Below are positions 2,341 to 62,887 of a stretch of 64,000 nucleotides of DNA, piece after piece (position 1 is the first letter of the stretch; each line of letters begins with the position of its first letter). Under the pieces are notes generated by a model. It was given only the letters and a program-made list of their open reading frames with translations, did no database searches and was not told where the DNA came from. A program made the position numbers and the translations under genes. The stretch is from TPA_inf: Saccharomyces (lineage: Eukaryota). The stretch is taken from NCBI GenBank assembly GCA_000146045.2, contig BK006941.2, positions 512,001-576,000 of the forward strand. The letters are read 5' to 3'.

Positions 2341-2553
2341 CATAGATGTATAAATCAGTACTGAGTTATCTTCTATTAAATTGTAGGAACAAATATAAAA
2401 AAGCAGTTTTCGCTGCTACATTTTTTGCTACTTTCCGTGGTAATGATGCCCGCTAAAAAGTGCAAAAGTAATTAGATAGATCAAGAACAAAAACAGACCA
2501 GGACCAAAATCAAGCTCATAAAAGTTCCTTAAGAGTACGTCGATTTACAGAAC

Positions 2554-4416: not shown

Positions 4417-4942
4417 AACAGAAGGGCCTTGGCGCGCGTCCCAAAAGGGAAAGGCTCGCTCTGAAACAGGCGAAGACACGAAAACAAATTACCGTTTCGG
4501 GGCGTTTTGCAGCAAGTGGCTAGACACGTCGGGCGTTGCCAGATCAAAATAGCACCAGTGGGTGTTTTTTTACTATCTCATCTTCGTGCTGATATATATA
4601 ACTTTTATACATTTCCATAGTACCAAGTTCTTTATTTCCTGCATTTTTACATTTATAATAGATTACCAAAACTATTCGACCTCACCAAGGGACCCCATAA
4701 TATTGCTAAAATAATCTTACCTGTTTTTTACCATTTTTTTCTTTTTTTCCAGAAGTAATAAGCTCTCTCTTAGAAGAACTAAAAGCATCTGACTTCGGCT
4801 CGTTCCAACCGACCAAAATATTTGTGAAAATATTATTCATTCCTTTAACGACTTATTGTGTATTCTGTTCATCTCTAGCTGGCTTCCACCTCGTTTCCTA
4901 TTTTTATTGACTTTTCATTAGGCTTCCTAATTATACCCATCT

Positions 4943-22458: not shown

Positions 22459-23218
22459 GATTTATTAAATGTTCTATGATAAAGTAAAAAGTAAAAACAT
22501 ACTTGTTAGTAAAAAACCGAACTCTAGTAGAATTTGGGATAAAGACTATTTGCTAATGACTTGAATTGTAGATTGAATTTAACTGTAAATCACCACTAAG
22601 TACGTAGTTTCCTTCTCTCAAAGTACCATGGGTAGCTAGATCTGTGCTATGGAGCATATAACAGAGACATGGATATTCATCCCATTAAGGTAGAACAGGC
22701 TTTTATGACATATTAAATCCTGGATTGGCCAGTCACTATTTCATCTTATCCGCCTAATATTGGTTTCAAATTTATAGATACATACACTAAAACTAACAGG
22801 GCTTGACGGTTTTCGATAACAAAGAATACGATTTCAATATTCAACTGAGCAATCTTAATAGTATTAAATGCTTCGTGAACTTTAAGAGATACTTCGTGAA
22901 GTTGTTCTGTCGCACAATTCTTCCTGTAGAAGGCGTCCTTCGTTTTTTTGTCTTCGCGCGTTACAGGGTAAATGAACCTCTTTATGGGTGAATGGGTTAC
23001 ACAAATGCACGGATGCATATATAAAATATAGAATTTTGCTTTATATTATTTTGAGCGGGCTAGAATCCACTCAGTGTACAAAGTACTATTCATTATATTG
23101 AACTGAAGAGGCAAGAACTATTTAGCTCAATCAACCACCTTAATAAAGTATTTGGAGTGATATATCGGCTTGTTTTAGTTTAATTCTTGTGGATATTTAG
23201 ATATCAAGGTTGTTGGAA

Positions 23219-23514
23219 TAAAAATCCACTATCGTCTATCAACTAATAGTTATATTATCAATATATTATCATATACGGTGTTAAGATGATGACATAAGTT
23301 ATGAGAAGCTGTCATCGAAGTTAGAGGAAGCTGAAGTGCAAGGATTGATAATGTAATAGGATAATGAAACATATAAAACGGAATGAGGAATAATCGTAAT
23401 ATTAGTATGTAGAAATATAGATTCCATTTTGAGGATTCCTATATCCTTGAGGAGAACTTCTAGTATATTCTGTATACCTAATATTATAGCCTTTATCAAC
23501 AATGGAATCCCAAC
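23219..23514 (+). repeat. Ty1-type delta LTR, 3'-truncated (solo delta)
   Basis: Starts TGTTGGAATAAAAATCCACTATCG and is nearly identical to the LTRs of the adjacent Ty1 for about 295 bp. It diverges after ...atctcaacattc. Confidence 0.85.
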
Positions 23515-23759
23515 AATTATCTCAACATTCCCCCATTTTTCAAAGGTAATTTTTGGAATTCCTTGCAAAGCTGTAATTAGGTATACAAAATACACTAGAT
23601 ACTCTACTCGACGATATAGTAATCCTCATAAGGGAATCGGTATTTCTAATATTACGTTATTTTTATTTTCTTTTACTGTTTTCTATGTTGTAGTTCATAA
23701 TTCCATAACATTATTAATCCTAGTGCTTCAGCTTCCATTGAATCTGATGACTTTTTCTC
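23515..23759 (-). repeat. Divergent delta-like LTR fragment in the opposite orientation, 5'-truncated by the Ty1 insertion
   Basis: Its reverse complement aligns with internal and 3' delta sequence (gagaa..gtcatc..ggaagctgaagc..aggatt.ataatgt....gtatacctaat) at roughly 75-80% identity. Confidence 0.6.
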
Positions 23760-24056
23760 TGTTGGAATAAAAATCCACTATCGTCTATCAACTAATAGTT
23801 ATATTATCAATATATTATCATATACGGTGTTAAGATGATGACATAAGTTATGAGAAGCTGTCATCGAAGTTAGAGGAAGCTGAAACGCAAGGATTGATAA
23901 TGTAATAGGATCAATGAATATAAACATATAAAACGGAATGAGGAATAATCGTAATATTAGTATGTAGAAATATAGATTCCATTTTGAGGATTCCTATATC
24001 CTCGAGGAGAACTTCTAGTATATTCTGTATACCTAATATTATAGCCTTTATCAACA

Positions 24057-25379
24057 ATGGAATCCCAACAATTATCTCAACATTCACATATTTCTCATGG
24101 TAGCGCCTGTGCTTCGGTTACTTCTAAGGAAGTCCACACAAATCAAGATCCGTTAGACGTTTCAGCTTCCAAAACAGAAGAATGTGAGAAGGCTTCCACT
24201 AAGGCTAACTCTCAACAGACAACAACACCTGCTTCATCAGCTGTTCCAGAGAACCCCCATCATGCCTCTCCTCAAACTGCTCAGTCACATTCACCACAGA
24301 ATGGGCCGTACCCACAGCAGTGCATGATGACCCAAAACCAAGCCAATCCATCTGGTTGGTCATTTTACGGACACCCATCTATGATTCCGTATACACCTTA
24401 TCAAATGTCGCCTATGTACTTTCCACCTGGGCCACAATCACAGTTTCCGCAGTATCCATCATCAGTTGGAACGCCTCTGAGCACTCCATCACCTGAGTCA
24501 GGTAATACATTTACTGATTCATCCTCAGCGGACTCTGATATGACATCCACTAAAAAATATGTCAGACCACCACCAATGTTAACCTCACCTAATGACTTTC
24601 CAAATTGGGTTAAAACATACATCAAATTTTTACAAAACTCGAATCTCGGTGGTATTATTCCGACAGTAAACGGAAAACCCGTACGTCAGATCACTGATGA
24701 TGAACTCACCTTCTTGTATAACACTTTTCAAATATTTGCTCCCTCTCAATTCCTACCTACCTGGGTCAAAGACATCCTATCCGTTGATTATACGGATATC
24801 ATGAAAATTCTTTCCAAAAGTATTGAAAAAATGCAATCTGATACCCAAGAGGCAAACGACATTGTGACCCTGGCAAATTTGCAATATAATGGCAGTACAC
24901 CTGCAGATGCATTTGAAACAAAAGTCACAAACATTATCGACAGACTGAACAATAATGGCATTCATATCAATAACAAGGTCGCATGCCAATTAATTATGAG
25001 AGGTCTATCTGGCGAATATAAATTTTTACGCTACACACGTCATCGACATCTAAATATGACAGTCGCTGAACTGTTCTTAGATATCCATGCTATTTATGAA
25101 GAACAACAGGGATCGAGAAACAGCAAACCTAATTACAGGAGAAATCTGAGTGATGAGAAGAATGATTCTCGCAGCTATACGAATACAACCAAACCCAAAG
25201 TTATAGCTCGGAATCCTCAAAAAACAAATAATTCGAAATCGAAAACAGCCAGGGCTCACAATGTATCCACATCTAATAACTCTCCCAGCACGGACAACGA
25301 TTCCATCAGTAAATCAACTACTGAACCGATTCAATTGAACAATAAGCACGACCTTCACCTTAGGCCAGGAACTTACTGA
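24057..25379 (+). CDS. TYA: Ty1 TYA (Gag), 440 aa
   Basis: 440-aa [29 protein letters not shown]... starting inside the 5' LTR. Confidence 0.95.
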
Positions 25380-28300
25380 ATCTACGGTAAATCACACTAA
25401 TCATTCTGATGATGAACTCCCTGGACACCTCCTTCTCGATTCAGGAGCATCACGAACCCTTATAAGATCTGCTCATCACATACACTCAGCATCATCTAAT
25501 CCTGACATAAACGTAGTTGATGCTCAAAAAAGAAATATACCAATTAACGCTATTGGTGACCTACAATTTCACTTCCAGGACAACACCAAAACATCAATAA
25601 AGGTATTGCACACTCCTAACATAGCCTATGACTTACTCAGTTTGAATGAATTGGCTGCAGTAGATATCACAGCATGCTTTACCAAAAACGTCTTAGAACG
25701 ATCTGACGGCACTGTACTTGCACCTATCGTACAATATGGAGACTTTTACTGGGTATCTAAAAGGTACTTGCTTCCATCAAATATCTCCGTACCCACCATC
25801 AATAATGTCCATACAAGTGAAAGTACACGCAAATATCCTTATCCTTTCATTCATCGAATGCTTGCGCATGCCAATGCACAGACAATTCGATACTCACTTA
25901 AAAATAACACCATCACGTATTTTAACGAATCAGATGTCGACTGGTCTAGTGCTATTGACTATCAATGTCCTGATTGTTTAATCGGCAAAAGCACCAAACA
26001 CAGACATATCAAAGGTTCACGACTAAAATACCAAAATTCATACGAACCCTTTCAATACCTACATACTGACATATTTGGTCCAGTTCACAACCTACCAAAA
26101 AGTGCACCATCCTATTTCATCTCATTTACTGATGAGACAACAAAATTCCGTTGGGTTTATCCATTGCACGACCGTCGCGAGGACTCTATCCTCGATGTAT
26201 TTACCACGATACTAGCTTTCATTAAAAACCAATTTCAGGCCAGTGTCTTGGTTATACAAATGGACCGTGGTTCTGAGTATACTAACAGAACTCTCCATAA
26301 ATTCCTTGAAAAAAATGGTATAACTCCATGCTATACAACCACAGCGGATTCCCGAGCACATGGAGTCGCTGAACGGCTAAACCGTACCTTATTAGATGAC
26401 TGCCGTACTCAACTGCAATGTAGTGGTTTACCGAACCATTTATGGTTCTCTGCAATCGAATTTTCTACTATTGTGAGAAATTCACTAGCTTCACCTAAAA
26501 GCAAAAAATCTGCAAGACAACATGCTGGCTTGGCAGGACTTGATATCAGTACTTTGTTACCTTTCGGTCAACCTGTTATCGTCAATGATCACAACCCTAA
26601 CTCCAAAATACATCCTCGTGGCATCCCAGGCTACGCTCTACATCCGTCTCGAAACTCTTATGGATATATCATCTATCTTCCATCCTTAAAGAAGACAGTA
26701 GATACAACTAACTATGTTATTCTTCAGGGCAAGGAATCCAGATTAGATCAATTCAATTACGACGCACTCACTTTCGATGAAGACTTAAACCGTTTAACTG
26801 CTTCATATCATTCGTTCATTGCGTCAAATGAGATCCAAGAATCCAATGATCTTAACATAGAATCTGACCATGACTTCCAATCCGACATTGAACTACATCC
26901 TGAGCAACCGAGAAATGTCCTTTCAAAAGCTGTGAGTCCAACCGATTCCACACCTCCGTCAACTCATACTGAAGATTCGAAACGTGTTTCTAAAACCAAT
27001 ATTCGCGCACCCAGAGAAGTTGACCCCAACATATCTGAATCTAATATTCTTCCATCAAAGAAGAGATCTAGCACCCCCCAAATTTCCAATATCGAGAGTA
27101 CCGGTTCGGGTGGTATGCATAAATTAAATGTTCCTTTACTTGCTCCCATGTCCCAATCTAACACACATGAGTCGTCGCACGCCAGTAAATCTAAAGATTT
27201 CAGACACTCAGACTCGTACAGTGAAAATGAGACTAATCATACAAACGTACCAATATCCAGTACGGGTGGTACCAACAACAAAACTGTTCCGCAGATAAGT
27301 GACCAAGAGACTGAGAAAAGGATTATACACCGTTCACCTTCAATCGATGCTTCTCCACCGGAAAATAATTCATCGCACAATATTGTTCCTATCAAAACGC
27401 CAACTACTGTTTCTGAACAGAATACCGAGGAATCTATCATCGCTGATCTCCCACTCCCTGATCTACCTCCAGAATCTCCTACCGAATTCCCTGACCCATT
27501 TAAAGAACTCCCACCGATCAATTCTCGTCAAACTAATTCCAGTTTGGGTGGTATTGGTGACTCTAATGCCTATACTACTATCAACAGTAAGAAAAGATCA
27601 TTAGAAGATAATGAAACTGAAATTAAGGTATCACGAGACACATGGAATACTAAGAATATGCGTAGTTTAGAACCTCCGAGATCGAAGAAACGAATTCACC
27701 TGATTGCAGCTGTAAAAGCAGTAAAATCAATCAAACCAATACGGACAACCTTACGATACGATGAGGCAATCACCTATAATAAAGATATTAAAGAAAAAGA
27801 AAAATATATCGAGGCATACCACAAAGAAGTCAATCAACTGTTGAAGATGAAAACTTGGGACACTGACGAATATTATGACAGAAAAGAAATAGACCCTAAA
27901 AGAGTAATAAACTCAATGTTTATCTTCAACAAGAAACGTGACGGTACTCATAAAGCTAGATTTGTTGCAAGAGGTGATATTCAGCATCCTGACACTTACG
28001 ACTCAGGCATGCAATCCAATACCGTACATCACTATGCATTAATGACATCCCTGTCACTTGCATTAGACAATAACTACTATATTACACAATTAGACATATC
28101 TTCGGCATATTTGTATGCAGACATCAAAGAAGAATTATACATAAGACCTCCACCACATTTAGGAATGAATGATAAGTTGATACGTTTGAAGAAATCACTT
28201 TATGGATTGAAACAAAGTGGAGCGAACTGGTACGAAACTATCAAATCATACCTGATACAACAATGTGGTATGGAAGAAGTTCGTGGATGGTCATGCGTAT

Positions 28301-29325
28301 TTAAAAACAGTCAAGTGACAATTTGTTTATTCGTAGATGATATGGTATTGTTTAGCAAAAATCTAAATTCAAACAAAAGAATTATAGACAAGCTTAAGAT
28401 GCAATACGACACCAAGATTATAAATCTAGGCGAAAGTGATGAGGAAATTCAATATGACATTCTTGGCTTGGAAATCAAATACCAAAGAGGTAAATACATG
28501 AAATTGGGTATGGAAAACTCATTAACTGAAAAAATACCCAAACTAAACGTACCTTTGAACCCAAAAGGAAGGAAACTTAGCGCTCCAGGTCAACCAGGTC
28601 TATATATAGACCAGCAAGAACTAGAGCTAGAAGAAGATGATTACAAAATGAAGGTACATGAAATGCAAAAGCTGATAGGTCTAGCATCATATGTTGGATA
28701 TAAATTTAGATTTGACCTATTATACTACATCAACACACTTGCACAACATATACTATTTCCGTCCAAGCAAGTGTTAGATATGACATATGAATTGATACAG
28801 TTCATATGGAATACGAGAGATAAGCAATTAATATGGCACAAAAGCAAACCTGTTAAGCCAACAAATAAATTAGTTGTTATAAGCGATGCCTCGTATGGCA
28901 ACCAACCGTATTATAAATCACAAATTGGCAACATATATTTACTTAATGGAAAGGTAATTGGAGGAAAGTCCACCAAGGCTTCATTAACATGTACTTCAAC
29001 TACGGAAGCAGAAATACACGCGATAAGTGAATCTGTCCCATTATTAAATAATCTAAGTTACCTGATACAAGAACTTGACAAGAAACCAATTACCAAAGGA
29101 TTACTAACCGACAGTAAATCTACAATCAGTATAATTATATCCAATAATGAAGAGAAATTTAGGAACAGATTTTTTGGTACTAAAGCAATGAGATTGAGAG
29201 ATGAAGTATCAGGAAATCATCTGCACGTATGCTATATCGAAACCAAAAAGAATATTGCAGACGTAATGACCAAACCTCTTCCGATAAAAACATTCAAACT
29301 ATTAACAAACAAATGGATTCATTAG
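25359..29325 (+). CDS. TYB: Ty1 TYB (protease-integrase-RT-RNase H), expressed as a Gag-Pol fusion by +1 ribosomal frameshift at CTT AGG C (25359-25365)
   Basis: +1 frame ORF 25606-29325 with protease DSGAS, the integrase HHCC/DDE core, RT YxDD (FVDDM) and RNase H motifs. The frameshift heptamer is in the TYA frame, 38 bp before the TYA stop. Confidence 0.95.
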
Positions 29326-29849
29326 ATCTATTACATTATGGGTGGTATGTTGGAATAAAAATCCACTATCGTCTATCAACTAATAGTTATATTATCAATA
29401 TATTATCATATACGGTGTTAAGATGATGACATAAGTTATGAGAAGCTGTCATCGAAGTTAGAGGAAGCTGAAACGCAAGGATTGATAATGTAATAGGATC
29501 AATGAATATAAACATATAAAACGGAATGAGGAATAATCGTAATATTAGTATGTAGAAATATAGATTCCATTTTGAGGATTCCTATATCCTCGAGGAGAAC
29601 TTCTAGTATATTCTGTATACCTAATATTATAGCCTTTATCAACAATGGAATCCCAACAATTATCTCAACATTCACATATTTCTCATTCTCAATCTTCATG
29701 GTATCTTTTTTACACCGTATATGATAAAATACAAGTAATATAAATACCAGCCACTGGATGACATTGAAATTTTATTCTAATAAATGCATCAGCTCTTTAA
29801 AAACATTGCTATTTAGCTATTTGAAGCCAGAAATTTTCACAGATTACCA

Positions 29850-29921
29850 TCCGATATAGTGTAACGGCTATCACATCACGCTTTCACCGTGGAGACCGGG
29901 GTTCGACTCCCCGTATCGGAG
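29850..29921 (+). tRNA. tE(UUC): tRNA-Glu (anticodon UUC)
   Basis: tccgatatagtgtaacggctatcacatcacgctttcaccgtggagaccggggttcgactccccgtatcggag matches yeast tRNA-Glu(UUC). It lies 165 bp downstream of the Ty1 3' LTR. Confidence 0.95.
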
Positions 29922-32205: not shown

Positions 32206-32576
32206 GTACAATCTCAGAATTCTGAAGGAACACATAAAAGACAATTTATACATATTTACAGATTCTCGTGTATATAACACTCCAATCGTATTGATCAGTC
32301 ATATGTTGGCTTTTTTATTTAGGCTTGAGCTCTAACTTTCCAGATGAATGACTTTTCTACTAATATATGTTAGGATTAATAGTTTTATATGTATAAAAAT
32401 ATTTAGTCAGTATTTAGCTAAAAAGTTTACTTTCAAAGAATTGTCATGTTTGCAGCTAGTGCCTCTGGTCTTTTGAGTATTCCCAGCCCTTGTTTAGAGG
32501 TCATCAAGAATGAACTTGAAATTAGCCGTATCAGTGGTATTAACCTCTTCTAAGAAGAGCAGAAAAAGAAAAAAAT

Positions 32577-32648
32577 CTCCGCGACGGGGAATTGAACCCC
32601 GATCTGGCACGCGACAAGCGCCCATTCTGACCATTAAACTATCACGGA
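32577..32648 (-). tRNA. tD(GUC): tRNA-Asp (anticodon GUC), second copy, minus strand
   Basis: Exact reverse complement of the 72-nt tRNA-Asp at 19610-19681. Confidence 0.95.
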
Positions 32649-33680
32649 AGAAATATCTGTGAAATGTGACTCTTATAGCATACTATTTTAGTTATGAATT
32701 GTGAAAATCCTCCCTGTCCTGCGTTCTACAATTTATTTAGTACTTGTTTGGCAAAAACGTCTCTCAGTGCCATTTACTTTGTAAAAAGTGCAGACTACAT
32801 CGCATCAACGGTCATATTAGGAGCCACTTCTATTTTTAACTCAACATGATCATTCAAAAATGTCGATACACTTGCATTTTATTGTACATACTAGTTGGAA
32901 GAGGCAGCGTCGATTTTGCTGAAATTTCTAGTAACTTGTAGCAGCAATACATTATATCATAAAAATAACCTGACTTGTAAAAGTTGAAACCCTAACTTTT
33001 ATTATTTCTTTCAATATTTTTCGATTAGACGTGAAAGATGACCAAGCACAACTAACAAAAAATTTGCATCCTCATAAAAAGCAAGACTTTTTGTATGTCG
33101 AAACAAAATTATTAAAAAACACGCATTAACACAGACACGAATTTGGCATACTTTCATTTTACTTTATATCTAGTGAAAAGTAGAAATTGTTTAAGGGAAC
33201 TACTTCACAGTGACCACTGATACTAGAATATGGAAATAAGAAAAGTTGCTAAGTAGGAGCCTAACAATCTTTTTTTATATTTTTCCATATTCCTTTATTG
33301 TCATGGGTCAAGACTGTATATGTTAGTGAAAGTTTTAGGGTTCTTGTGACAAACTTCACCAACATAAACATGGCCTCTTCGAAGATCCGTAGATTTTGCA
33401 TTTTTGCGGTGGTTTATGGATTCAAAGCGAGGCCTAAATTAACGATCATGTCTTTGCTATTATATCAGAGGGCATATCATTGAATTTCCGATTTCCAAAG
33501 GGAAGAAAATAAATAAAGTTGTGCTATTTCCATGCATCCTTTTTTCTTTCATTCAATGACACATACTTCTTGTAGTAGGAACAATTGGTAGTTCTGATAT
33601 CGATTAAGCCTTCTAAAAATGCTTTATATTATAAAGTACAAATGCAAGAAGTAGCTATGGATGCTAAAGAGCTGGTCGAT

Positions 33681-36251: not shown

Positions 36252-41951
<5,700 letters not shown>

Positions 41952-49350: not shown

Positions 49351-49661
49351 ACATAGTTTATTTCAATCTTGTATCTAGATGTTTTTGCTATATTTATATT
49401 TTCTGGGCCAAATCACTAACGCTTTGAAATTTCAAAAGCCAACAACGGATTTCGGACTTCATTTATGTAAATGAAAAAGAATGTGAACAAAAATTGAAAA
49501 AATTCCATATTAATGCACCTTCTAAACCTATTTGTTGAAATTGTATTTAATTCATATAATCATATTCTATTCAAAAAGAATAACAGATAGTATTAGCACT
49601 ATTTCACGTACTGCTTCTAATACTATTATCACAAAATAGACATCGGAAAACTCAAAAATAA

Positions 49662-49743
49662 CGACAACTGCAGGACTCGAACCTGCGCGGGCAAAGCCCA
49701 AAAGATTTCTAATCTTTCGCCTTAACCACTCGGCCAAGTTGCC
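49662..49743 (-). tRNA. tS(AGA): tRNA-Ser (anticodon AGA), 82 nt with long variable arm
   Basis: The reverse complement, ggcaacttggccgagtggttaaggcgaaagattagaaatcttttgggctttgcccgcgcaggttcgagtcctgcagttgtcg, matches yeast tRNA-Ser(AGA). Confidence 0.95.
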
Positions 49744-50198
49744 AATGTATACATTGCTGTTTCCTGGTTTGAAGAAGCTAATCGTGCACGTAAACAACAA
49801 TCTATACTACAAGTAAAAAAATGGGGAAAAAGATGCTGAAGGTGAGATATATGTGGGTAATTAGATAATTGTTGGGATTCCATTGTTGATAAAGGCTATA
49901 ATATTAGGTATACAGAATATACTAGAAGTTCTCCTCGAGGATTTAGGAATCCATAAAAGGGAATCTGCAATTCTACACAATTCTATAAATATTATTATCA
50001 TCGTTTTATATGTTAATATTCATTGATCCTATTACATTATCAATCCTTGCGTTTCAGCTTCCACTAATTTAGATGACTATTTCTCATCATTTGCGTCATC
50101 TTCTAACACCGTATATGATAATATACTAGTAATGTAAATACTAGTTAGTAGATGATAGTTGATTTCTATTCCAACATACCACCCATAATGTAATAGAT

Positions 50199-53100
50199 CT
50201 AATGAATCCATTTGTTAGTTAATAGTTTAAATGTTTTTATCGGAAGAGGTTTTGTCATCACATCAGCAATGTTCTTCTTGGTCTCGATGTAGTATACGTA
50301 TAGATTATTACCTGATACTTCATCTCTAAGTCTCATTGCCTTTGTGCCAAAAAATCTGTTTCTAAATTTCTCTTCATTTGTAGACTTAATTATACTGATC
50401 GTTGATCTACTATCAGTAAGTAAGCCTTTAATAATTGGTTTCTTGTTAAGTTCTTGCACAAGGTGACTGAGGTTATTCAATAGCGGAATAGCTTCACTGA
50501 CTGCGTGTATTTCTGCTTCTGTAGTTGAAGTGCATGTTAACGAAGCCTTTGTCGACTTTCCTCCAATCACTTTTCCGTTGAGTAGGAAAATGTTACCAAT
50601 TTGTGACTTGTAATATGGTTGGTTACCATATGAAGCATCGCTTATTGCGACTAGTTTATTATCTGGCTCGGTAGGTTTGTTTTTGTGCCATATCAGTTGT
50701 TTATCTCTAGTGTCCCACATGAATTGTATTAACTCATATGTCATGTCTAAAACTTGCCTAGAGGGGAATAGTATATGTTGAGCAAGTGTGTTGATGTAGT
50801 ATAGTAAGTCAAATCTAAATTTATATCCAACATATGAAGCTAGACCAATCAACTTTTGCATTTCATGTACCTTCTCTTTGTATTCATCTTCATCTATTTC
50901 TAGTTCATCCTGGTCTATATAAAGACCTGGTTGACCTGGAGCGCTAAGTTTTCTTCCTTTTGGATTCAAAGGTACGTTTAATTTGGGTATTTTCTCAGTT
51001 AATGAGTTTTCCATACCTAATTTCATGTATTTACCTCTTTGATATTTGATTTCTAAGCCAAGTATGTCGTACTGAATTTCGTTATCACTTTCACCCAGAT
51101 TTATTATCTTTGTATCGTATTGTTTCTTGAGTGTTGTTATGATTTTCTTATTTGCATTTAAGTCTTTGCTGAACAATATCATATCATCAACGAATAAGCA
51201 AATTGTTACTTGACTATTCTTAAATACGCATGACCATCCACGAACTTCTTCCATACCACACTGTTTTATCAGGTATGATTTGATAGTTTCGTACCAGTTC
51301 GCTCCACTTTGTTTCAATCCATAAAGTGATTTCTTCAAACGTATCAACTTATCATTCATTCCTAAATGTGGTGGAGGTCTTATGTATAATTCTTCTTTGA
51401 TGTCTGCATACAAATATGCCGAAGATATGTCTAATTGTGTAATATAGTAGTTATTGTCTAATGCAAGTGACAGGGATGTCATTAATGCATAGTGATGTAC
51501 GGTATTGGATTGCATGCCTGAGTCGTAAGTGTCAGGATGCTGAATATCACCTCTTGCAACAAATCTAGCTTTATGAGTACCGTCACGTTTCCTGTTGAAG
51601 ATAAACATTGAATTTATTACTCTTTTAGGGTCTATTTCTTTTCTGTCATAATATTTGTCAGTGTCCCAAGTATTCATTTTCAATAGTTGGTTGACTTCTT
51701 TGTGGTATGCTTCGATATATTTTTCCTTTTCTTTAATATCTTTATTATAGGTGATTGCCTCATCGTATCTTAAGGTTGTCCGTATTGGTTTGATTGATTT
51801 TACTGCTTTTACAGCTGCAATCAGGTGAATTCGTTTCTTCGATCTCGGAGGTTCTAAACTACGCATATTCTTAGTATTCCATGTGTCTCGTGATACCTTA
51901 ATTTCAGTTTCATTATCTTCTAATGATCTTTTCTTACTGTTGATAGTAGTATAGGCATTAGAGTCACCAATACCACCCAAACTGGAATTAGTTTGATGAG
52001 AATTTATCGGTGGGAGTTCTTTAAATGGGTCAGGGAATTCGGTAGGAGATTCTGGAGGTAGATCAGGGAGTGGGAGATCAGCGATGATAGATTCCTCGGT
52101 ATTCTGTTCAGAAACAGTAGTTGGCGTTTTGATAGGAACAATATTGTGCGATGAATTATTTTCCGGTGGAGAAGCATCGATTGAAGGTGAACGGTGTATA
52201 ATCCTTTTCTCAGTCTCTTGGTCACTTATCTGCGGAACAGTTTTGTTGTTGGTACCACCCGTACTGGATATTGGTACGTTTGTATGATTAGTCTCATTTT
52301 CACTGTACGAGTCTGAGTGTCTGAAATCTTTAGATTTACTGGCGTGCGACGACTCATGTGTGTTAGATTGGGACATGGGAGCAAGTAAAGGAACATTTAA
52401 TTTATGCATACCACCCGAACCGGTACTCTCGATATTGGAAATTTGGGGGGTGCTAGATCTCTTCTTTGATGGAAGAATATTAGATTCAGATATGTTGGGG
52501 TCAACTTCTCTGGGTGCGCGAATATTGGTTTTAGAAACACGTTTCGAATCTTCAGTATGAGTTGACGGAGGTGTGGAATCGGTTGGACTCACAGCTTTTG
52601 AAAGGACATTTCTCGGTTGCTCAGGATGTAGTTCAATGTCGGATTGGAAGTCATGGTCAGATTCTATGTTAAGATCATTGGATTCTTGGATCTCATTTGA
52701 CGCAATGAACGAATGATATGAAGCAGTTAAACGGTTTAAGTCTTCATCGAAAGTGAGTGCGTCGTAATTGAATTGATCTAATCTGGATTCCTTGCCCTGA
52801 AGAATAACATAGTTAGTTGTATCTACTGTCTTCTTTAAGGATGGAAGATAGATGATATATCCATAAGAGTTTCGAGACGGATGTAGAGCGTAGCCTGGGA
52901 TGCCACGAGGATGTATTTTGGAGTTAGGGTTGTGATCATTGACGATAACAGGTTGACCGAAAGGTAACAAAGTACTGATATCAAGTCCTGCCAAGCCAGC
53001 ATGTTGTCTTGCAGATTTTTTGCTTTTAGGTGAAGCTAGTGAATTTCTCACAATAGTAGAAAATTCGATTGCAGAGAACCATAAATGGTTCGGTAAACCA

Positions 53101-54165
53101 CTACATTGCAGTTGAGTACGGCAGTCATCTAATAAGGTACGGTTTAGCCGTTCAGCGACTCCATGTGCTCGGGAATCCGCTGTGGTTGTATAGCATGGAG
53201 TTATACCATTTTTTTCAAGGAATTTATGGAGAGTTCTGTTAGTATACTCAGAACCACGGTCCATTTGTATAACCAAGACACTGGCCTGAAACTGGTTTTT
53301 AATAAAAGCTAGTATCGTAGTAAAAACATCGAGGATAGAGTCCTCGCGACGGTCGTGTAATGGATAAACCCAACGGAATTTTGTTGTCTCATCAGTAAAT
53401 GAGATGAAATAGGATGGTGCACTATTTGGTAGGTTGTGAACTGGACCAAATATGTCAGTATGTAGGTATTGAAAGGGTTCGTATGAATTTTGGTATTTTA
53501 GTCGTGAACCTTTGATATGTCTGTGTTTGGTGCTTTTGCCGATTAAACAATCAGGACATTGATAGTCAATAGCACTAGACCAGTCGACATCTGATTCGTT
53601 AAAATACGTGATGGTGTTATTTTTAAGTGAGTATCGAATTGTCTGTGCATTGGCATGCGCAAGCATTCGATGAATGAAAGGATAAGGATATTTGCGTGTA
53701 CTTTCACTTGTATGGACATTATTGATGGTGGGTACGGAGATATTTGATGGAAGCAAGTACTTTTTAGATACCCAGTAAAAGTCTCCATATTTTACGATAG
53801 GTGCAAGTACAGTGCCGTCAGATCGTTCTAAGACGTTTTTGGTAAAGCATGCTGTGATATCTACTGCAGCCAATTCATTCAAACTGAGTAAGTCATAGGC
53901 TATGTTAGGAGTGTGCAATACCTTTATTGATGTTTTGGTGTTGTCCTGGAAGTGAAATTGTAGGTCACCAATAGCGTTAATTGGTATATTTCTTTTTTGA
54001 GCATCAACTACGTTTATGCCAGGATTAGATGATGCTGAGTGTATGTGGTGAGCAGATCTTATAAGGGTTCGTGATGCTCCTGAATCGAGAAGGAGGTGTC
54101 CAGGGAGTTCATCATCAGAATGATTAGTGTGATTTACCGTAGATTCAGTAAGTTCCTGGCCTAAG
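50199..54165 (-). CDS. TYB: Ty1 TYB (Pol), expressed by +1 frameshift as a Gag-Pol fusion
   Basis: 1239-aa +1-frame ORF with protease, integrase and RT/RNase H motifs. Confidence 0.95.
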
Positions 54166-55467
54166 ATGAAGGTCGTGCTTATTGTTCAATTGAATCGGTT
54201 CAGTAGTTGATTTACTGATGGAATCGTTGTCCGTGCTGGGAGAGTTATTAGATGTGGATACATTGTGAGCCCTGGCTGTTTTCGATTTCGAATTATTTGT
54301 TTTTTGAGGATTCCGAGCTATAACTTTGGGTTTGGTTGTATTCGTATAGCTGCGAGAATCATTCTTCTCATCACTCGGATTTCTCCTGTAATTAGGTTTG
54401 CTGTTTCTCGATCCCTGTTGTTCTTCATAAATAGCATGGATATCTAAGAACAGTTCAGCGACTGTCATATTTAGATGTCGATGACGTGTGTAGCGTAAAA
54501 ATTTATATTCGCCAGATAGACCTCTCATAATTAATTGGCATGCGACCTTGTTATTGATATGAATGCCATTATTGTTCAGTCTGTCGATAATGTTTGTGAC
54601 TTTTGTTTCAAATGCATCTGCAGGTGTACTGCCATTATATTGCAAATTTGCCAGGGTCACAATGTCGTTTGCCTCTTGGGTATCAGATTGCATTTTTTCA
54701 ATACTTTTGGAAAGAATTTTCATGATATCCGTATAATCAACGGATAGGATGTCTTTGACCCAGGTAGGTAGGAATTGAGAGGGAGCAAATATTTGAAAAG
54801 TGTTATACAAGAAGGTGAGTTCATCATCAGTGATCTGACGTACGGGTTTTCCGTTTACTGTCGGAATAATACCACCGAGATTCGAGTTTTGTAAAAATTT
54901 GATGTATGTTTTAACCCAATTTGGAAAGTCATTAGGTGAGGTTAACATTGGTGGTGGTCTGACATATTTTTTAGTGGATGTCATATCAGAGTCCGCTGAG
55001 GATGAATCAGTAAATGTATTACCTGACTCAGGTGATGGAGTGCTCAGAGGCGTTCCAACTGATGATGGATACTGCGGAAACTGTGATTGTGGCCCAGGTG
55101 GAAAGTACATAGGCGACATTTGATAAGGTGTATACGGAATCATAGATGGGTGTCCGTAAAATGACCAACCAGATGGATTGGCTTGGTTTTGGGTCATCAT
55201 GCACTGCTGTGGGTACGGCCCATTCTGTGGAGGTGGTACTGAAGCAGGTTGAGGAGAGGCATGATGGGGGTTCTCTGGAACAGCTGATGAAGCAGGTGTT
55301 GTTGTCTGTTGAGAGTTAGCCTTAGTGGAAGCCTTATCATATTCTTGAATTTTGGAAGCTGAAACGTCTAACGGATCTTGATTTGTGTGGACTTCCTTAG
55401 AAGTAACCGAAGCACAGGCGCTACCATGAGATATATGTGAATGTTGAGATAATTGTTGGGATTCCAT
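54145..55467 (-). CDS. TYA: Ty1 TYA (Gag), 440 aa
   Basis: 440-aa ORF with the canonical ...[19 protein letters not shown]... Gag sequence. Confidence 0.95.
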
Positions 55468-57094
55468 TGTTGATAAAGGCTATAATATTAGGTATACAGA
55501 ATATACTAGAAGTTCTCCTCGAGGATTTAGGAATCCATAAAAGGGAATCTGCAATTCTACACAATTCTATAAATATTATTATCATCGTTTTATATGTTAA
55601 TATTCATTGATCCTATTACATTATCAATCCTTGCGTTTCAGCTTCCACTAATTTAGATGACTATTTCTCATCATTTGCGTCATCTTCTAACACCGTATAT
55701 GATAATATACTAGTAATGTAAATACTAGTTAGTAGATGATAGTTGATTTCTATTCCAACAGAAGGAGATAAAAATTTCAAAATGTTTCTATGATAAATTT
55801 ATAATGAATTTATAATAATGTTTTGGGCTGTTTCCCTTTAGATTATTTAGCTTATCGTACATAATCGCACATAATCAGACTCTTTATTATATATAATTAA
55901 ATATTTCGAGATTTACATACTAGTGGTTACTTAAAAGTGTAATCGCAAATTATATCAGAAATGAACAAAGATACGCAGTCCAAATTATTGACAACAACCA
56001 GCATATGTACTTAGTAATATTTTATGAAGTTACTAAATCAAGATTAGAAACGTAAAAATAGAATAACATGATCAAGTTCAAGTCTGAATTTCCTTTAATA
56101 TTTGGATAAGTAAATTCACTACGTGACATGATTGGTTGGTGCCAACATAACACAATTTTAACATTATGTAATCTACAGGATAAGTAGCATTCTGTGTAAC
56201 AAATTGTAGTAAGTCTGGCAAATCTCTACTCTCTTAAAGGTATAAGGATTGTCCAGATACCCGATATTACTAGAGGCCGTCATGTATAAAATGTGGTAAC
56301 GTAAAATATACACTTAACAGAAAGTTAAAAAAGGTTAAGTTATACGTGGCTTTCTCCTTTTTTCTTTTCAAGTACCTACCTGCTGTTAATTAATAGTTAA
56401 TATTGATCACGAGAATAACAGATCTTCATATACAGTATAAGAGAGATCTATAAAACTAAAAATGGATAGATTTTGATGAAATTCGTGGGCCGATATACTC
56501 TTCAGTTTGTCATTCATGATTTATTATAATATAGACTTCATAAGTGAACTTTGTAGTTTCTGGTGATTACTATAGCGATACTTTTCGAATAGTCACAACA
56601 AGAGCTTCTGCTTCACGTTTTTTGGAAACAAAAGACTGAGGAGGGGCTAAATATAAATACTGATTCATATTACGAAAGGAAATAAAAAAATAACTATATG
56701 TAGATTTATATTAATATTGTATAATTGCAGTCCTTGTATTTGAAGAGAATGTGGATTTTGATGTAATTGTTGGGATTCCATTGTGATTAAGGCTATAATA
56801 TTAGGTATGTAGATATACTAGAAGTTCTCCTCGAGGATTTAGGAATCCATAAAAGGGAATCTGCAATTCTACACAATTCTATAAATATTATTATCATCAT
56901 TTTATATGTTAATATTCATTGATCCTATTACATTATCAATCCTTGCGTTTCAGCTTCCACTAATTTAGATGACTATTTCTCATCATTTGCGTCATCTTCT
57001 AACACCGTATATGATAATATACTAGTAACGTAAATACTAGTTAGTAGATGATAGTTGATTTTTATTCCAACATACCACCCATAATGTAATAGAT

Positions 57095-60000
57095 CTAATG
57101 AATCCATTTGTTAGTTAATAGTTTAAATGTTTTTATCGGAAGAGGTTTTGTCATCACATCAGCAATGTTCTTCTTGGTCTCGATGTAGTATACGTATAAA
57201 TTATTACCTGATACTTCATCTCTAAGTCTCATTGCCTTTGTGCCAAAAAATCTGTTTCTAAATTTCTCTTCATTTGTAGACTTAATTATACTGATCGTTG
57301 ATCTACTATCAGTAAGTAAGCCTTTAATAATTGGTTTCTTGTTAAGTTCTTGCACAAGGTGACTGAGGTTATTCAATAGCGGAATAGCTTCACTGACTGC
57401 GTGTATTTCTGCTTCTGTAGTTGAAGTGCATGTTAACGAAGCCTTTGTCGACTTTCCTCCAATCACTTTTCCGTTGAGTAGGAAAATGTTACCAATTTGT
57501 GACTTGTAATATGGTTGGTTACCATATGAAGCATCGCTTATTGCGACTAGTTTATTATCTGGCTTGGTAGGTTTGTTTTTGTGCCATATTAATTGTTTAT
57601 CTCTAGTGTCCCACATGAATTGTATTAACTCATATGTCATGTCTAAAACTTGCCTAGAGGGGAATAGTATATGTTGAGCAAGTGTGTTGATGTAGTATAG
57701 TAAGTCAAATCTAAATTTATATCCAACATATGAAGCTAGACCAATCAACTTTTGCATTTCATGTACTTTCTCTTTGTATTCATCTTCATCTATTTCTAGT
57801 TCATCCTGGTCTATATAATGACCTGGTTGACCTGGAGCTCTAAGTTTCTTTCCTTTTGGGTTCAAAGGTACGTTTAGTTTGGGTAATTTTTCTGTCAAGG
57901 ATTTTTCCATACCTAATTTCATGTACTTGCTTCTTTGATATTTGATCTCTAATCCAAGTATGTCGTACTGAATTTCGTTATCACTTTCACCCAGATTTAT
58001 TATCTTTGTATCGTATTGTTTCTTGAGTGTTGTTATGATTTTCTTATTTGCATTTAAGTCTTTGCTGAATAATATCATATCATCAACGAATAAGCAAATT
58101 GTTACTTGACTATTCTTAAATACGCATGACCATCCGCGAACTTCTTGCATGTCGCAACAATTTATTAAATATGATTTAATGGTTTCATACCAGTTTGCAC
58201 CACTTTGTTTCAAACCATAGAGTGATTTTCTCAAACGTAGTAATTTATCATTCAAACCTAAATGTGGTGGAGGTCTTATGTATAATTCTTCTTTGATATC
58301 AGCATATAAGTAAGCAGAGGATATGTCCAGCTGTGTGATATAATAGTCGTTGTCTAATGCGATTGACAGTGACGTCATCAGTGCATAGTGATGTACGGTA
58401 TTGGATTGCATATCAGAATCATATGTATCGGGGTGTTGAATGTCGCCTCTTGCAACAAATCTAGCTTTGTGTGTACCATCACGTTTCTTGTTAAATATAA
58501 ACATTGAGTTTATTACTTTTTTAGGATCTATGTCATTTCTATCATAATATTTGTTTGTATCCCAAGTGTTCATTTTCAATAGTTGGCTAATTTCTTTATG
58601 ATAAGCTTCAACATATCTGTCTTTTTCTTTGTTGTCTTTATTATATGTAATTGCTTCATCATATCTTAAGGTCGTTCGAACTGGTTTGATCGATTTCACT
58701 CCTTTTATTGCTGCAATTAAATTTATGCGTTTCTTCGATCTTGGTGGTTCCAGACTTCTCATATTCTTATTATTCCATGTGTCTCGGGATACCTCAATTT
58801 CAGTTTCATTATCTTCTAATGATCTTTTCTTACTTTTGGTAGTAGTCAGAACATTAGAATCATCCATACCACCCAAACTGGAATTAGTCTGACGAGAGTG
58901 TATGTGTGGAATATCTTTTGAAACATCAGAAGTGTCCGTAGGAGATTTATGGGTTAAGTCAGGAAGTGGGAGGTCGTCAAGAATAGAATCAGCCGTAACA
59001 TTTTTTGAGGATTTGTCAGGCATTATATTAGGAGTCGCATGGTCAGAAGATCGATATTCTGGCGGATCCGTATCAATGGAGGGTGTATTATCACATACAG
59101 CCTTTGTTTCTATGGAGATGATGGGAGTAGTGGATTCACTGTTGGACGAACGGTCATCTATTGAGGGCGTACTATTTGTAGTCCTGTATTTGATATTTGT
59201 ATCACTATTTCGTTGAATATATGGTTCCTCCGTACCACCCAAACGTGTAGTTTTGATGTTTTCAAGTCCATAATTAACTCTATCCTGTGAGGTCAAATCA
59301 ATCATCTCATTGGTACTACCAGGTCGGTTTTGGTTTCGTGCAGTGAAGGTAGACGAGTGTCTAGGTGAAGTAGTATCTGATTCAACGGTACCACCCATTT
59401 CGGTACTCTCTTTATTAATGATATGGGGTGTACGAGATCGTATAGTAGATGGAAGAATATTGTATTCAGATATGTCGGCATCAACTTCTTTTGGTGCACG
59501 TACTTTTTGGACTGGTTCCTTGTCTAATTGTAAAGGGTTTATTGATTGGGACGAGAAGTCGTTCACTAGAGGATCAGAGTTTATTTCAATCTCCGATTGA
59601 TAGTCATGATCAGATTCTGTATTTTGATCATATGACTGCTCTGTTTCATTTTGTTCAATAAAAGATTGGTTATGGGCTGTTAAACGATTGAGATCATCAT
59701 CAAAAGTGAGTGTATCGTAGTCGAACTGGTCCAATTTCGTTTGCTTGTTTTGTAATATAACGTAATTGGTAGTATCTACTGTCTTTTTTAATGATGGAAG
59801 ATAGATAATATAGCCATAAGAGTTTCGTGACGGATGTAAGGCGTAACCTGGAATGCCACGAGGATGTATTTTCGAGTCGGGATTATGGTTGTTAACTATA
59901 ACCGGTTGACCGAAAGGTAGTATAGTAGTAATGTCCAGTCCAGCTAAACCTGCATGTTGTCTTGCAGATTTATCGTTTTTTTGGTGAGACTAATGAATTT

Positions 60001-61136
60001 CTGATTATAGTAGAAAATTCGACTGCTGAGAACCATAGATGATTTGGTAGACCACTGCAATGAAGCAGTGTGCGACAATCGTTTAATAAAGTACGATTTA
60101 ATCGTTCAGCGACACCGTGTGCTCTAGAATCTGCCGTGGTTGTATAGCATGCAGTAATACCTCTGTTCGTAAAGAACTTATGAAGAGTTTTGTTAGTGTA
60201 CTCGGAGCCACGATCCATCTGGATAACTAGAACGCGAGCATTGAATTGGTTCTTAATAAATGCTAATATCGATGTAAAAACATTGAGGATAGATTCTTCA
60301 CGACGGTCGTGTAATGGGTACACCCATTGGAATCTGGTTTTCTCATCTGTAAACGATATAAAGTAAGAAGGTGCACTTTTCGGTAAGTGATGTACAGGAC
60401 CAAATATATCGGTGTGCAAGTACTGAAAAGGCTCATATGATTCTTGGTACTTTAGTCGTGATCCTTTGACATGTCTATGTTTCGTGCTTTTGCCGATTAG
60501 ACAGTCAGGACATTGATATGTGCTAGCGTTAGACCATTCAATATCCGATTCCTTCAAATATGTAACTGCATTCTTCTTAAGAGACTTCTGAATACTTCGG
60601 AAGTTAGCATGTCCAAGCATTCGATGTATTAACGGATATGGATATTTATTTACGCTTTTGCTTTTGTTGACGTTGTTTATTGTTAGCTTTGAAATGTGCG
60701 AAGGAATTAGGTATTTTTTAGATAACCAGTAAAAGTCTCCATGTTTGACTATGGGAGCTAGTACTGTACCATCCGATCTTTCTAAAGTGTTTCTGGTAAA
60801 GCAGGCAGTAATATTTTGATTAGCCAGCTCACTCAAACTTAATAGATCATAGGCTATGTTTGGTGTGTGTAGTGCTTTTATTGATGTTTTGGTGCCGTTC
60901 TGAAAGTTGAAGTGAAGATTACCAATGGCATTTATAGGAATGTCTTGTTTTTGAGCATCGACTATGTTTATTTCAGAATTGGGTGTTGCATGGTGTAAAT
61001 AATGGGCTGATCTGACAAGCGTTTGCGAAGCTCCTGAATCAATAAGAAGGTGATCAGGTAGTTCGTCATTCGAGTCTATTGTGTGTGTTGGCTTAGATTC
61101 TTTCTGTTGCTGGCCTAAGACTAAGTTCGTCGTCAT
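57095..61136 (-). pseudogene. TYB: Ty2 TYB (Pol) split into two ORFs (59970-61136 and 57095-59734) by a frameshift in a T7/A7 homopolymer at 59976-59982
   Basis: The upstream piece ends ...SLVSPKKR-stop. The -1 frame continues [25 protein letters not shown]... straight into the downstream ORF, so restoring 2 nt (or removing 1) in the A-run would give one continuous Pol. Confidence 0.8.
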
Positions 61137-62409
61137 CGCTTAAGTATTGTGATGAAACGGTTGATTCATTAATGTGATCATTGTTCACCCTTGAGAATTT
61201 ACTAGATGTAGCAATATTGTGAGCTTTTGCTGCTCTTGGTTTTGAACTATTTGTTCTATGATAATTACGAGTTGTAACCTTTGTGTTAGTCGTGTTTGGA
61301 GATGTGCGAGAAACATTTTTGTATTCGCTGTGTTGTTTGTATTGGGACGGTTTATTTAGATTCATGATTTTATTTTCGTCATATATTAATTGAATTTCAG
61401 CGAATAATTGGGAAAGTTTCATGTTCGTTTTGGTACGATATTGATTACGTAGGTATTTGAAGTCACCGGATAGACCTTTAAGTATTAGTTGACAGGCCAA
61501 TCTGTCGCTAACATTGATATTGTTTTCTTTTAGCCTCTGAATGATCGTACTGACTGTAATTTCAAATGTATCAGCAGATGTACTTCCGTCGTACTCAAGG
61601 TTGGCAAGAGCTATCCAATCCTTTAATTCTTGATTGTTAGTTTGCATTTTGGACACACTTTTACAAAGGACTGTAAGGATGTCAGCATAATTAATTTCTA
61701 AAATTTGTTTTACCCATGTTGGCAATAAATGAAATGGGGCAAATGCTTGGAAGGTATTGTATATATACGCATGTTCTTCATAAGTCATTTGTCTTTTGAT
61801 TTCACCCTGGTCATTTGGAATGATGTCACCGAGATTAGAGTTCTTCAAAAATCTGATGTAAAATTTAACCCATGTAGAAAAGTTTTCTTCTGATGTTAAA
61901 GTGTGTGGTGGTAAGACGTTATTTCCCACCTTTGTCTTAGCTTGAGGTATTTCAGAGTGTTGATTTTTTAAATCGATTGGATCAGGTGAGGAAGTACTCA
62001 GTGGTGGGATATACTGTGGCAACGGATAGTGTGGGTCCGGTTGATAATACGCAGGTGACGTTTGATAATGTGAACACGTCATCATAGATGGTTGTTGGTA
62101 ATGTGCCCAGTTAGAGGCCATAGCTTTGTTTGGGGTCATCATGCCGTGCTGTTGGTACTGTCCATTCTGTGGAGGTGGTACTGAAGCAGGTTGAGGAGAG
62201 ACATGATGATGGTTCTCTGGAACAGCTGATGTCCCAGGTGTTGTCTCTTGTTGAGAATTAACCTTAGTGGAATCTCTATCAAATTCCGGTAAATTGGAAG
62301 CTGAAACGGCTAACGGATCTTGATTTTATGGGACTTCCTTAGAAGTAACCGAAGCATAGGCGCTACCATGAAGAGAATGTGGATTTTGATGTAATTGTTG
62401 GGATTCCAT
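61093..62409 (-). pseudogene. TYA: Ty2 TYA (Gag) with a premature stop at codon 27 (TAA at 62326-62328, minus strand). The remaining ORF 61093-62142 restarts at an internal Met.
   Basis: From the ATG at 62407-62409 the frame reads [27 protein letters not shown]-stop-NQDPLAV..., whereas Ty2 Gag continues here (other copies have a sense codon). Confidence 0.8.
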
Positions 62410-62887
62410 TTTTTATAAGGCGATAATATTAGGTATGTAGATATACTAGAAGTTCTCCTCGAGGATTTAGGAATCCATAAAAGGGAATCTGCAATTCTAC
62501 ACAATTCTATAAATATTATTATCATCATTTTATATGTTAATATTCATTGATCCTATTACATTATCAATCCTTGCGTTTCAGCTTCCACTAATTTAGATGA
62601 CTATTTTTCATCATTTGCGTCATCTTCTAACACCGTATATGATAATATACTAGTAACGTAAATACTAGTTAGTAGATGATAGTTGATTTTTATTCCAACA
62701 GTATTTATGTTTTGTCATTCTTTTCTACATAATCTTGAAACTAGGTAGATCTACAATTGAAAAGTAAATACTAACATTATTTACTAAATTTAAGTTAGAA
62801 ATCGGCACGAAAAAAATTTGACAGATTACGAGAGTCCAGCCAAAATATGAGTATATTACTATTTCCCCTTGGTGAAAGAAATGAAAG

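Follow-up and report, generated by a model that had tools for sequence, protein, structure and literature searches.

How did the 3' end of a Ty1 retrotransposon come to resemble the Ty2 element that stands beside it? This question is raised by a 64,000-nucleotide (nt) stretch of S. cerevisiae S288C chromosome VII (GenBank assembly GCA_000146045.2, contig BK006941.2, positions 512,001 to 576,000 of the forward strand), here called the window, whose numbering is used throughout unless element nt are given. An initial annotation had proposed that its minus-strand Ty1, YGRCTy1-2, is a mosaic produced by recombination between Ty1 and Ty2. Our analysis points to YGRCTy1-2 being a member of the known Ty1/2 hybrid subfamily, which would have arisen by template switching between Ty1 and Ty2 and then spread by retrotransposition; we put the probability of this explanation at about 85%. 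The same Ty elements are named at about 573 kb of chromosome VII in a published study (PMC12151323). Three elements of the window are compared:

23760-29685, plus strand: YGRWTy1-1 (Ty1-GR1), 5926 bp, target-site duplication TTCTC, a non-hybrid Ty1 (U3 and 3' pol of Ty1 type)
49843-55760, minus strand: YGRCTy1-2 (Ty1-GR2, YGR038C-A/B), 5918 bp, target-site duplication CCTTC, a full-length Ty1/2 hybrid
56741-62700, minus strand: YGRCTy2-1, 5960 bp, target-site duplication AATAC, a degenerate pseudogene

Ty1-GR1, Ty1-GR2 and YGRCTy2-1 were brought into a three-way alignment, which was evaluated in 200-nt windows and by site-by-site classification. For the breakpoint test the unanimous consensus of four Ty2 copies was used, and the element was read in RNA order (R ... 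U3). The Ty2 copies added to YGRCTy2-1 (L001, L007 and L008) come from unrelated metagenome contigs, and two further Ty1 copies (L004 and L006) are two loci of S. cerevisiae GCA_012275245.1. The 5' long terminal repeat (LTR) of L001, which is of Ty1 type, was left out of the Ty2 consensus; this 6080-bp metagenome scaffold is probably chimeric across the LTR. As outgroup we used a Ty1-like element of S. mikatae (L005; IFO 1815, OX365762.1). Bootstrap values are given for some clades only, as the tree is rooted and the replicates are unrooted, and we rely on topologies, reported clades and the permutation test.

The windowed identities of the three elements reveal a clear mosaic. YGRCTy1-2 tracks YGRWTy1-1 from LTR nt 260 to element nt 4521, with 99.0% identity over 51241-55500 compared with 69% to Ty2, and it tracks Ty2 from element nt 4542 to nt 5818. 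The maximum chi-square value places the switch at 51240/51219, which corresponds to element nt 4521/4542. This value is 1019, compared with a best value of 33 in 2000 permutations, and the ratio of Ty1-type to Ty2-type informative sites in RNA order changes from 1130:26 left of the breakpoint to 16:169 right of it (Fisher p = 4e-165). Trees of separate segments are incongruent, the partner of Ty1-GR2 being Ty1-GR1 over nt 335-4521 but Ty2 over nt 5170-5584 and in U3. The mosaic that the initial annotation ascribed to exchange between Ty1 and Ty2 is therefore far beyond chance, and the trees are not those of an element carrying private mutations with no breakpoint. From the 5' to the 3' end, YGRCTy1-2 is composed as follows (RT, reverse transcriptase):

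55521-55760, minus strand: U3 of the 5' LTR, Ty2-type (over 55527-55760, 98.3% identical to Ty2 and 79.8% to Ty1-GR1)
55427-55520, minus strand: R-U5 of the 5' LTR, Ty1-type (99% to Ty1-GR1, 84% to Ty2)
51241-55426, minus strand: Ty1-type body with primer-binding site, gag, protease, integrase, hypervariable region and N-terminal half of RT (99.0% to Ty1-GR1, 69.1% to Ty2; 1130/1156 sites Ty1-type)
51219-51240, minus strand: crossover interval in pol (maximum chi-square breakpoint)
51058-51218, minus strand: Ty2-type block 1, RT catalytic region (99.4% to Ty2, 161/162; 79.6% to Ty1-GR1)
50923-51057, minus strand: Ty1-like patch of 135 bp (94.8% to Ty1-GR1, 87.4% to Ty2)
50177-50922, minus strand: Ty2-type block 2, C-terminal RT, RNase H, pol stop and polypurine-tract region (99.3% to Ty2, 741/746; 84.7% to Ty1-GR1)
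49937-50176, minus strand: U3 of the 3' LTR, Ty2-type (over 49943-50176, 98.7% to Ty2 and 79.8% to Ty1-GR1)
49843-49936, minus strand: R-U5 of the 3' LTR, Ty1-type (94% to Ty1-GR1, 84% to Ty2)

The size of about 1.3 kb first given for the Ty2-like part agrees with our tract of 1277 bp, provided that U3 of the 3' LTR is included, into which the tract reaches down to 49943. Its position had to be shifted. The interval first proposed, 50177-51500, is as a whole closer to Ty2 (94.8%) than to the plus-strand Ty1 (88.2%), but its upper 281 bp (51220-51500) are 99.3% identical to Ty1-GR1 and 83.6% to Ty2. The sharp divergence that had been placed at about 51500 is an abrupt switch indeed, but it lies about 280 bp nearer to the 3' end. 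The remaining 1043 bp (50177-51219) are 97.8% identical to Ty2 and 85.2% to Ty1-GR1, so that the 3' part of TYB is of Ty2 type, as in Ty1/2 hybrids. In the regions that separate Ty1 from Ty2, namely gag and hypervariable pol (PMC3511429), YGRCTy1-2 is on the Ty1 side, with 98.7% identity to Ty1-GR1 and 66% to Ty2 in gag and 100% and 57%, respectively, in the hypervariable region.

The remaining features of YGRCTy1-2 are those of an ordinary Ty1, a copia-type LTR retrotransposon of the Pseudoviridae. Its LTRs (55427-55760 and 49843-50176) have the ends TGTTGG...TCTCA, the 5' LTR is directly followed by the tRNAiMet primer-binding site TGGTAGCGCC, and the CCTTC target-site duplication, read from the sequence at 55761-55765 and 49838-49842, is intact. 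When Gag-Pol was rebuilt via the +1 frameshift at CTTAGGC (54159-54165), a protein of 1755 amino acids (aa) was obtained which is identical to NP_058160.1 / Q12269 (Transposon Ty1-GR2 Gag-Pol polyprotein) and has its Pfam domains in the Ty1 order (TYA 17-400, Pol_BBD 459-533, rve 663-763, RVT_2 1281-1487). Gag-Pol of YGRWTy1-1 is an exact match to Q12141 (Ty1-GR1).

On the protein level, the crossover falls within RVT_2 at Gag-Pol codons 1410-1417, about 10 codons upstream of the FVDDM motif (1425). Between Gag-Pol of Ty1-GR1 and of Ty1-GR2 there are 54 residue differences, of which Gag holds 10 and Pol 44; the latter number bears out the more than 40 Pol differences counted initially. At aa 1401-1725 there are 36 such differences, and at 34 of them Ty1-GR2 carries the Ty2 residue; the claim that every C-terminal difference matches Ty2 thus holds apart from K1401, which matches neither element, and E1600, which is private to Ty1-GR2. 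Among 36 diagnostic residues, Ty1-GR2 has the Ty2 state at all 36, while the Ty1 state is found at 36/36 in Ty1-GR1 and at 35/36 in Ty1-JR2. In Ty1-JR1, Ty1-ER1 and Ty1-H the first 22-23 diagnostic sites are in the Ty2 state, with the same onset as in Ty1-GR2, and are followed by short Ty1-state patches that differ between these elements. A protein search with the Ty2 pol open reading frame (ORF) led to the Ty2 cluster. When the 355-aa C-terminus served as query, the hits were confined to fragments and distant yeasts, and Ty1 could not be told from Ty2.

Which of the two Ty1 elements is the recombinant? The same differences could also be read without any transfer from Ty2, if YGRWTy1-1 belonged to a diverged Ty1 sublineage whose 3' end had mutated or was derived from another subfamily such as Ty1'. 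Some support for this comes from YGRWTy1-1 itself, as Ty1-GR1 is the odd one out at nt 412-530, at nt 4071-4105 and at about half of the sites in nt 4542-4700, and from S288c, in which some elements are recombinants of canonical Ty1 and Ty1' within pol (PMC7055915). Against it, the outgroup places the foreign sequence elsewhere. Starting at nt 4840, the S. mikatae element shares 91-93% identity with Ty1-GR1, as elsewhere in pol, and 81-88% with Ty1-GR2 and Ty2, and the dominating site pattern unites Ty1-GR2 with Ty2 and Ty1-GR1 with the outgroup. Followed along 3' pol, identity to the outgroup stays at 89-92% for Ty1-GR1 and falls to the Ty2 level of 81-86% for Ty1-GR2. In addition, the identity between Ty1-GR2 and Ty2 leaps from 83.6% to 99.4% across 21 bp, independently of Ty1-GR1, and substitutions scattered by chance would not yield a chi-square of 1019. 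By the outgroup identities and this abrupt rise, Ty1-GR2 (YGRCTy1-2) is the element that carries Ty2 sequence. A plus-strand Ty1 that is merely diverged or privately mutated, which the initial annotation had kept as an option, is refuted as the sole cause of the pattern and hardly credible as an account of it.

The peculiarities of Ty1-GR1 deserve a description of their own. In gag of YGRWTy1-1, at about 24175-24295 (nt 412-530), 12 sites are unlike the Ty2 consensus, whereas YGRCTy1-2, L004 and L006 match it; L002 and L003 match YGRCTy1-2, and the S. mikatae element does so in part. The Gag residues affected read TEECE/TAQSHS versus IQEYD/PASVPP. This cluster looks like a patch from another Ty1 lineage. 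The 3' end of Ty1-GR1 may itself have been acquired, and YGRWTy1-1 may belong to the class of elements in which canonical Ty1 has recombined with Ty1'. Further transfers from Ty2 into YGRCTy1-2 were considered at 55231-55248 in gag and at 51656-51690, and were rejected as peculiarities of Ty1-GR1, because every other Ty1 compared has the same gag bases, nearly all have the same bases at 51656-51690, and S. mikatae shares them at many sites. The KMK/KMN residues first quoted as an example of the Ty2-like C-terminus (aa 1265 and 1271; 51674-51656) proved to be a poor choice, since they lie outside the tract and Ty1-GR1 is the odd one out there; at most of these sites S. mikatae and Ty2 are in agreement with the remaining Ty1 elements.

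The LTRs of YGRCTy1-2 indicate how the Ty2 sequence was fixed in the element. In both LTRs U3 (about 240 bp) is of Ty2 type and R-U5 is of Ty1 type, as described for Ty1/2 hybrids. The Ty2-type U3 of the 5' LTR (55521-55760) goes beyond what the initial annotation had described. In this LTR, 47/49 informative sites in element nt 17-234 are Ty2-type, the last of them at nt 234, and the first Ty1-type informative site follows at nt 260. In both LTRs the change from Ty2 to Ty1 type falls between nt 234 and nt 260, an interval that brackets the U3/R boundary at nt 241. An XhoI site at LTR nt 238 stands beside the start of R (about element nt 241), and in Ty1-H3 nt 241-5561 begin with R-U5 (PMC5454406). 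The U3 sequences of the two LTRs are identical. A junction at U3/R in both LTRs together with identical U3s is the pattern expected of LTRs that are built from a 3' U3 and a 5' R-U5; YGRCTy1-2 has passed through reverse transcription. The near-identity noted between the LTRs at 49843-50176 and 56741-57072 is correct for U3 only. They are 94.9% identical overall, with 98.7% in the Ty2-like U3 part (to the last Ty2-type informative site) and 84% in the other 100 bp, which are essentially R-U5 and of Ty1 type.

The two LTRs of YGRCTy1-2 differ from each other at five positions only, which cluster in U5 at LTR positions 315-321 (49856-49862 vs 55440-55446; ...TCTAATTACCCAC... versus ...TCTCAACATTCAC...). 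The 3' R-U5 is 100% identical to the 3' R-U5 of the Ty1 loci L004 and L006. Point mutation is a less likely source of such a cluster than a short conversion tract or an unusual strand transfer.

Was the Ty2 sequence taken from the neighbour? The adjacency of the two elements suggests a local exchange, in which the 3' end of the Ty1 would have been converted at the DNA level by the Ty2, which has the same orientation at a distance of 980 bp. Such an ectopic gene conversion would be favored by the direct orientation of the adjacent elements and by their identity of 99.3-99.4% over most of the tract, and non-allelic recombination on chromosome VII is known to occur at this Ty pair (PMC12151323). 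Several observations speak against it. Identity of the YGRCTy1-2 tract to each of the four Ty2 copies is 97.7-97.9%, whether they are adjacent or unlinked, and the tract is no closer to the neighbour than to the three unlinked ones. YGRCTy2-1 is in turn 99.9-100% identical to the other Ty2 copies in the shared tract, and none of its 20 private variants lies within it, so that a direct test of the donor is without power. At a distance of 5.6 kb, the 5' U3 is also of Ty2 type and does not differ from the 3' U3, and both LTRs have their junction at the U3/R boundary. The tract also contains three U3 substitutions that are absent from the 3' LTR of the neighbour, and the 135-bp patch (50923-51057, nt 4704-4838), in which 13/16 informative sites have the Ty1 state (Fisher p = 1e-14). 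Here YGRCTy1-2 departs from each of the four Ty2 copies, and the patch is therefore not a private divergence of the neighbouring Ty2.

Moreover, neither breakpoint nor patch is confined to YGRCTy1-2: L004 and L006 have the exact 4521/4542 breakpoint and the 4704-4838 patch of YGRCTy1-2, and over nt 4542-5080 they form one cluster with Ty1-GR2 (100% bootstrap). On this evidence the neighbouring YGRCTy2-1 is not the donor of the tract, local conversion is largely refuted, and we regard it as a most improbable origin. Breakpoints in common with other elements, a 5' U3 of Ty2 type and the patch within the tract suffice to show that the mosaic was inherited, not made on the spot, by a lineage that kept recombining. 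In L004 and L006 (both at 1155-7080) the Ty2-type RT/RNase H block is internal and gives way again to Ty1-type sequence at about nt 5154/5166 and 5081/5089, respectively; the LTRs, including U3, are purely Ty1-type. These two elements form a mosaic class distinct from the hybrids that carry the Ty2 U3.

How, then, did the ancestral mosaic arise? YGRCTy1-2 has the layout [U3 Ty2][R-U5 Ty1][gag-protease-integrase-RT(N) Ty1][RT(C)-RNase H Ty2 with a short Ty1-like patch][U3 Ty2][R-U5 Ty1]. In the order of the genomic RNA (R-U5 ... pol ... U3-R), this reduces to one main switch from Ty1 to Ty2. A Ty1 RNA and a Ty2 RNA would have been packaged into the same virus-like particle. Minus-strand strong-stop DNA would have been made on the Ty1 R-U5 and transferred to the 3' R of the Ty2 RNA, where reverse transcriptase would have continued through U3 and the 3' end of pol, until it returned to the Ty1 RNA within RT, at codons 1410-1417. 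Once reverse transcription was complete, the same chimeric LTR would have stood at both ends, and the recombinant lineage would have spread by ordinary retrotransposition, one copy landing 99 bp upstream of tRNA-Ser(AGA). One switch in RT and the obligatory minus-strand transfer thus account for the main architecture in RNA order. In YGRCTy1-2 we looked for features that would oppose the retrotransposition route, namely a Ty1-type 5' U3 and a missing or mismatched target-site duplication, and neither is present. The template switch and the heterozygous particle, which we infer for this element, have been proposed for the hybrids in the literature (PMC4022208).

Four points weigh against this explanation. 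First, a single template switch leaves the 135-bp patch and the 5-nt U5 difference unexplained, for which extra switches or later conversion are needed. Second, the leader sequences of Ty1 and Ty2 may disfavour the packaging of heterodimers (PMC5454406), so that co-packaging must be rare. Third, sequence alone has no power to tell an RNA-level from a DNA-level ancestral origin. Fourth, YGRCTy1-2 is assigned to the hybrid class by its sequence features and not by name among the 14-18 published S288C hybrids. The support on this point is indirect: the sequence file of PMC4022208 contains the LTRs of YGRWTy1-1 (among the reference sequences of Additional file 1) and of YGRCTy2-1, YGRCTy1-2 is not named in the supplements searched, and the comparison set of that study excluded hybrids.

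The third point concerns a related scenario, in which the ancestral exchange took place at the DNA level, by chromosomal gene conversion or by cDNA-mediated conversion of a resident element, and was afterwards spread by retrotransposition. The mosaic is indeed more complex than one switch, with its internal patch and the variable 3' ends of related elements, and in both Ty1-GR2 and Ty2 the positions at which the 5' LTR differs from the 3' LTR are clustered and resemble short conversion tracts. The junction at the U3/R boundary opposes this scenario as a specific signature of minus-strand transfer. However, reverse transcription of any hybrid RNA copies the 3' U3 to both LTRs, and therefore this signature proves reverse transcription and not the mechanism of the first exchange. 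We consider an origin at the DNA level unlikely, though clearly less so than conversion by the present neighbour.

Template switching followed by retrotransposition thus remains our preferred explanation, and the fine structure may add to it. There is a small chance that the 135-bp patch and the U5 cluster record events not yet described. The patch is shared across strains and only 94.8% identical to pure Ty1, and it could stem from a third parental lineage. The U5 cluster could have resulted from reverse transcription on two templates (intermolecular plus-strand transfer) or from cDNA-mediated conversion of a resident element. A third lineage or a dual-template event, if real, would be a minor addition to what is known of how Ty elements replicate and recombine, and no new kind of element.

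The surroundings of the elements fit common Ty biology. Adjacent to the Ty1 insertions are tRNA genes (49661-49744, 29850-29921, 19609-19682 and 32576-32649), with tRNA-Ser(AGA) 99 bp from the 3' LTR of YGRCTy1-2 and tRNA-Glu(TTC) 164 bp from YGRWTy1-1; this placement is the expected targeting upstream of Pol III genes. No tRNA gene adjoining YGRCTy2-1 was found with ARAGORN. Before the insertion of YGRCTy1-2, YGRCTy2-1 would have stood about 1 kb upstream of tRNA-Ser. YGRCTy2-1 carries a private C>A change at 62327 that creates a TAA stop early in gag, a private 1-bp insertion in pol at 59982 and eight private substitutions clustered at 59705-59749, and its LTRs differ at six positions, five of which cluster at LTR nt 279-290. 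The two LTRs of YGRWTy1-1 are 100% identical. This element apparently inserted into an older, inverted and degenerate delta LTR, of which the fragments 23544-23759 and 29686-29780 match LTR positions 93-318 and 3-97 at about 72%; just upstream, an intact solo delta at 23211-23542 is 96% identical to the LTR of YGRWTy1-1. Neighbouring ORFs in the window include GSC2 (36264-41951) and UGA1 (13229-14644), which together with the exact matches of the two Gag-Pol proteins place the window on S288C chromosome VII at roughly 512-576 kb. Another ORF at 4943-8863 (1306 aa) contains seven head-to-tail copies with a 51-bp period at 6981-7447, and we presume from its length and position that it is the mucin gene MSB2.

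In the literature, the Ty1 subfamilies are Ty1, Ty1' and Ty1/2 (PMC7175516). Ty1/2 hybrids were reported by Jordan & McDonald in 1998 (J Mol Evol 47:14) and 1999 (Mol Biol Evol 16:419), as described in PMC4022208, PMC3511429 and PMC7055915. Of the 32 Ty1 elements present at full length in S288c, 18 are Ty1/2 hybrids with a TYB segment and the 240-bp LTR U3 from Ty2, presumably derived from recombination during reverse transcription in heterozygous virus-like particles (PMC4022208), and a clade of 18 recombinant Ty1/2 elements shares common LTR breakpoints (PMC3511429). The initial statement that Ty1 and Ty2 share their RT/RNase H end is correct for this hybrid subfamily only, as Ty1-GR1 and Ty2 are about 84% identical there. 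For Ty2, an entry into S. cerevisiae from S. mikatae has been proposed (PMC3511429). In the S. mikatae contig a Ty2-type LTR is split by the full-length Ty1-like element (L005, 7321-7581 and 1343-1410); it is 95.8% identical to the U3 of S. cerevisiae Ty2 and hybrids and 81% to the Ty1-type LTR, which fits this origin of Ty2.

YGRCTy1-2 agrees with the Ty1/2 hybrids in every feature tested and may be counted among them. Like them it has Ty1 gag and hypervariable pol, a Ty2 3' TYB, the 240-bp U3 of Ty2 and chimeric LTRs, and nothing substantive differs; the 135-bp patch and the discordant U5 are details that may or may not have been described for the hybrids before. Hybrids are divided into a 'long' type with >300 bp of Ty2 TYB and a 'short' type with 60 bp (PMC4022208), and YGRCTy1-2 corresponds to the long type. 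The promoter region (U3), the C-terminus of RT and RNase H of YGRCTy1-2 are of Ty2 origin, and its capsid, protease and integrase are those of Ty1. Particularly high rates of transcription and transposition in an S288c background are cited for hybrids (PMC4022208). The element is a textbook-level case of module exchange between two transposon families, and nothing new follows from it, since the architecture has been known since 1998-99 and the element is part of the reference genome.

Canonical Ty1, represented by Ty1-H3 (M18706), has the same length as YGRCTy1-2 (5918 bp), the likeness being one of length and description, and high similarity to Ty2 in the LTRs and 3' pol is reported for canonical Ty1 (PMC7055915, S5 Fig legend). 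The recombinants of canonical Ty1 and Ty1' (PMC7055915) are also mosaics, within one family, with incongruent gag, pol and LTR trees. In these, the exchange took place between Ty1 subfamilies, whereas YGRCTy1-2 has its tract from Ty2, a separate family. A more distant parallel is given by retroviral copy-choice recombinants such as the circulating recombinant forms of HIV-1, in which RNAs are co-packaged, reverse transcriptase switches templates and the LTR is built from the 3' U3 and the 5' R-U5. In HIV-1 the partners are co-infecting viruses, whereas Ty elements are intracellular and the partners are two transposon families resident in the same genome.

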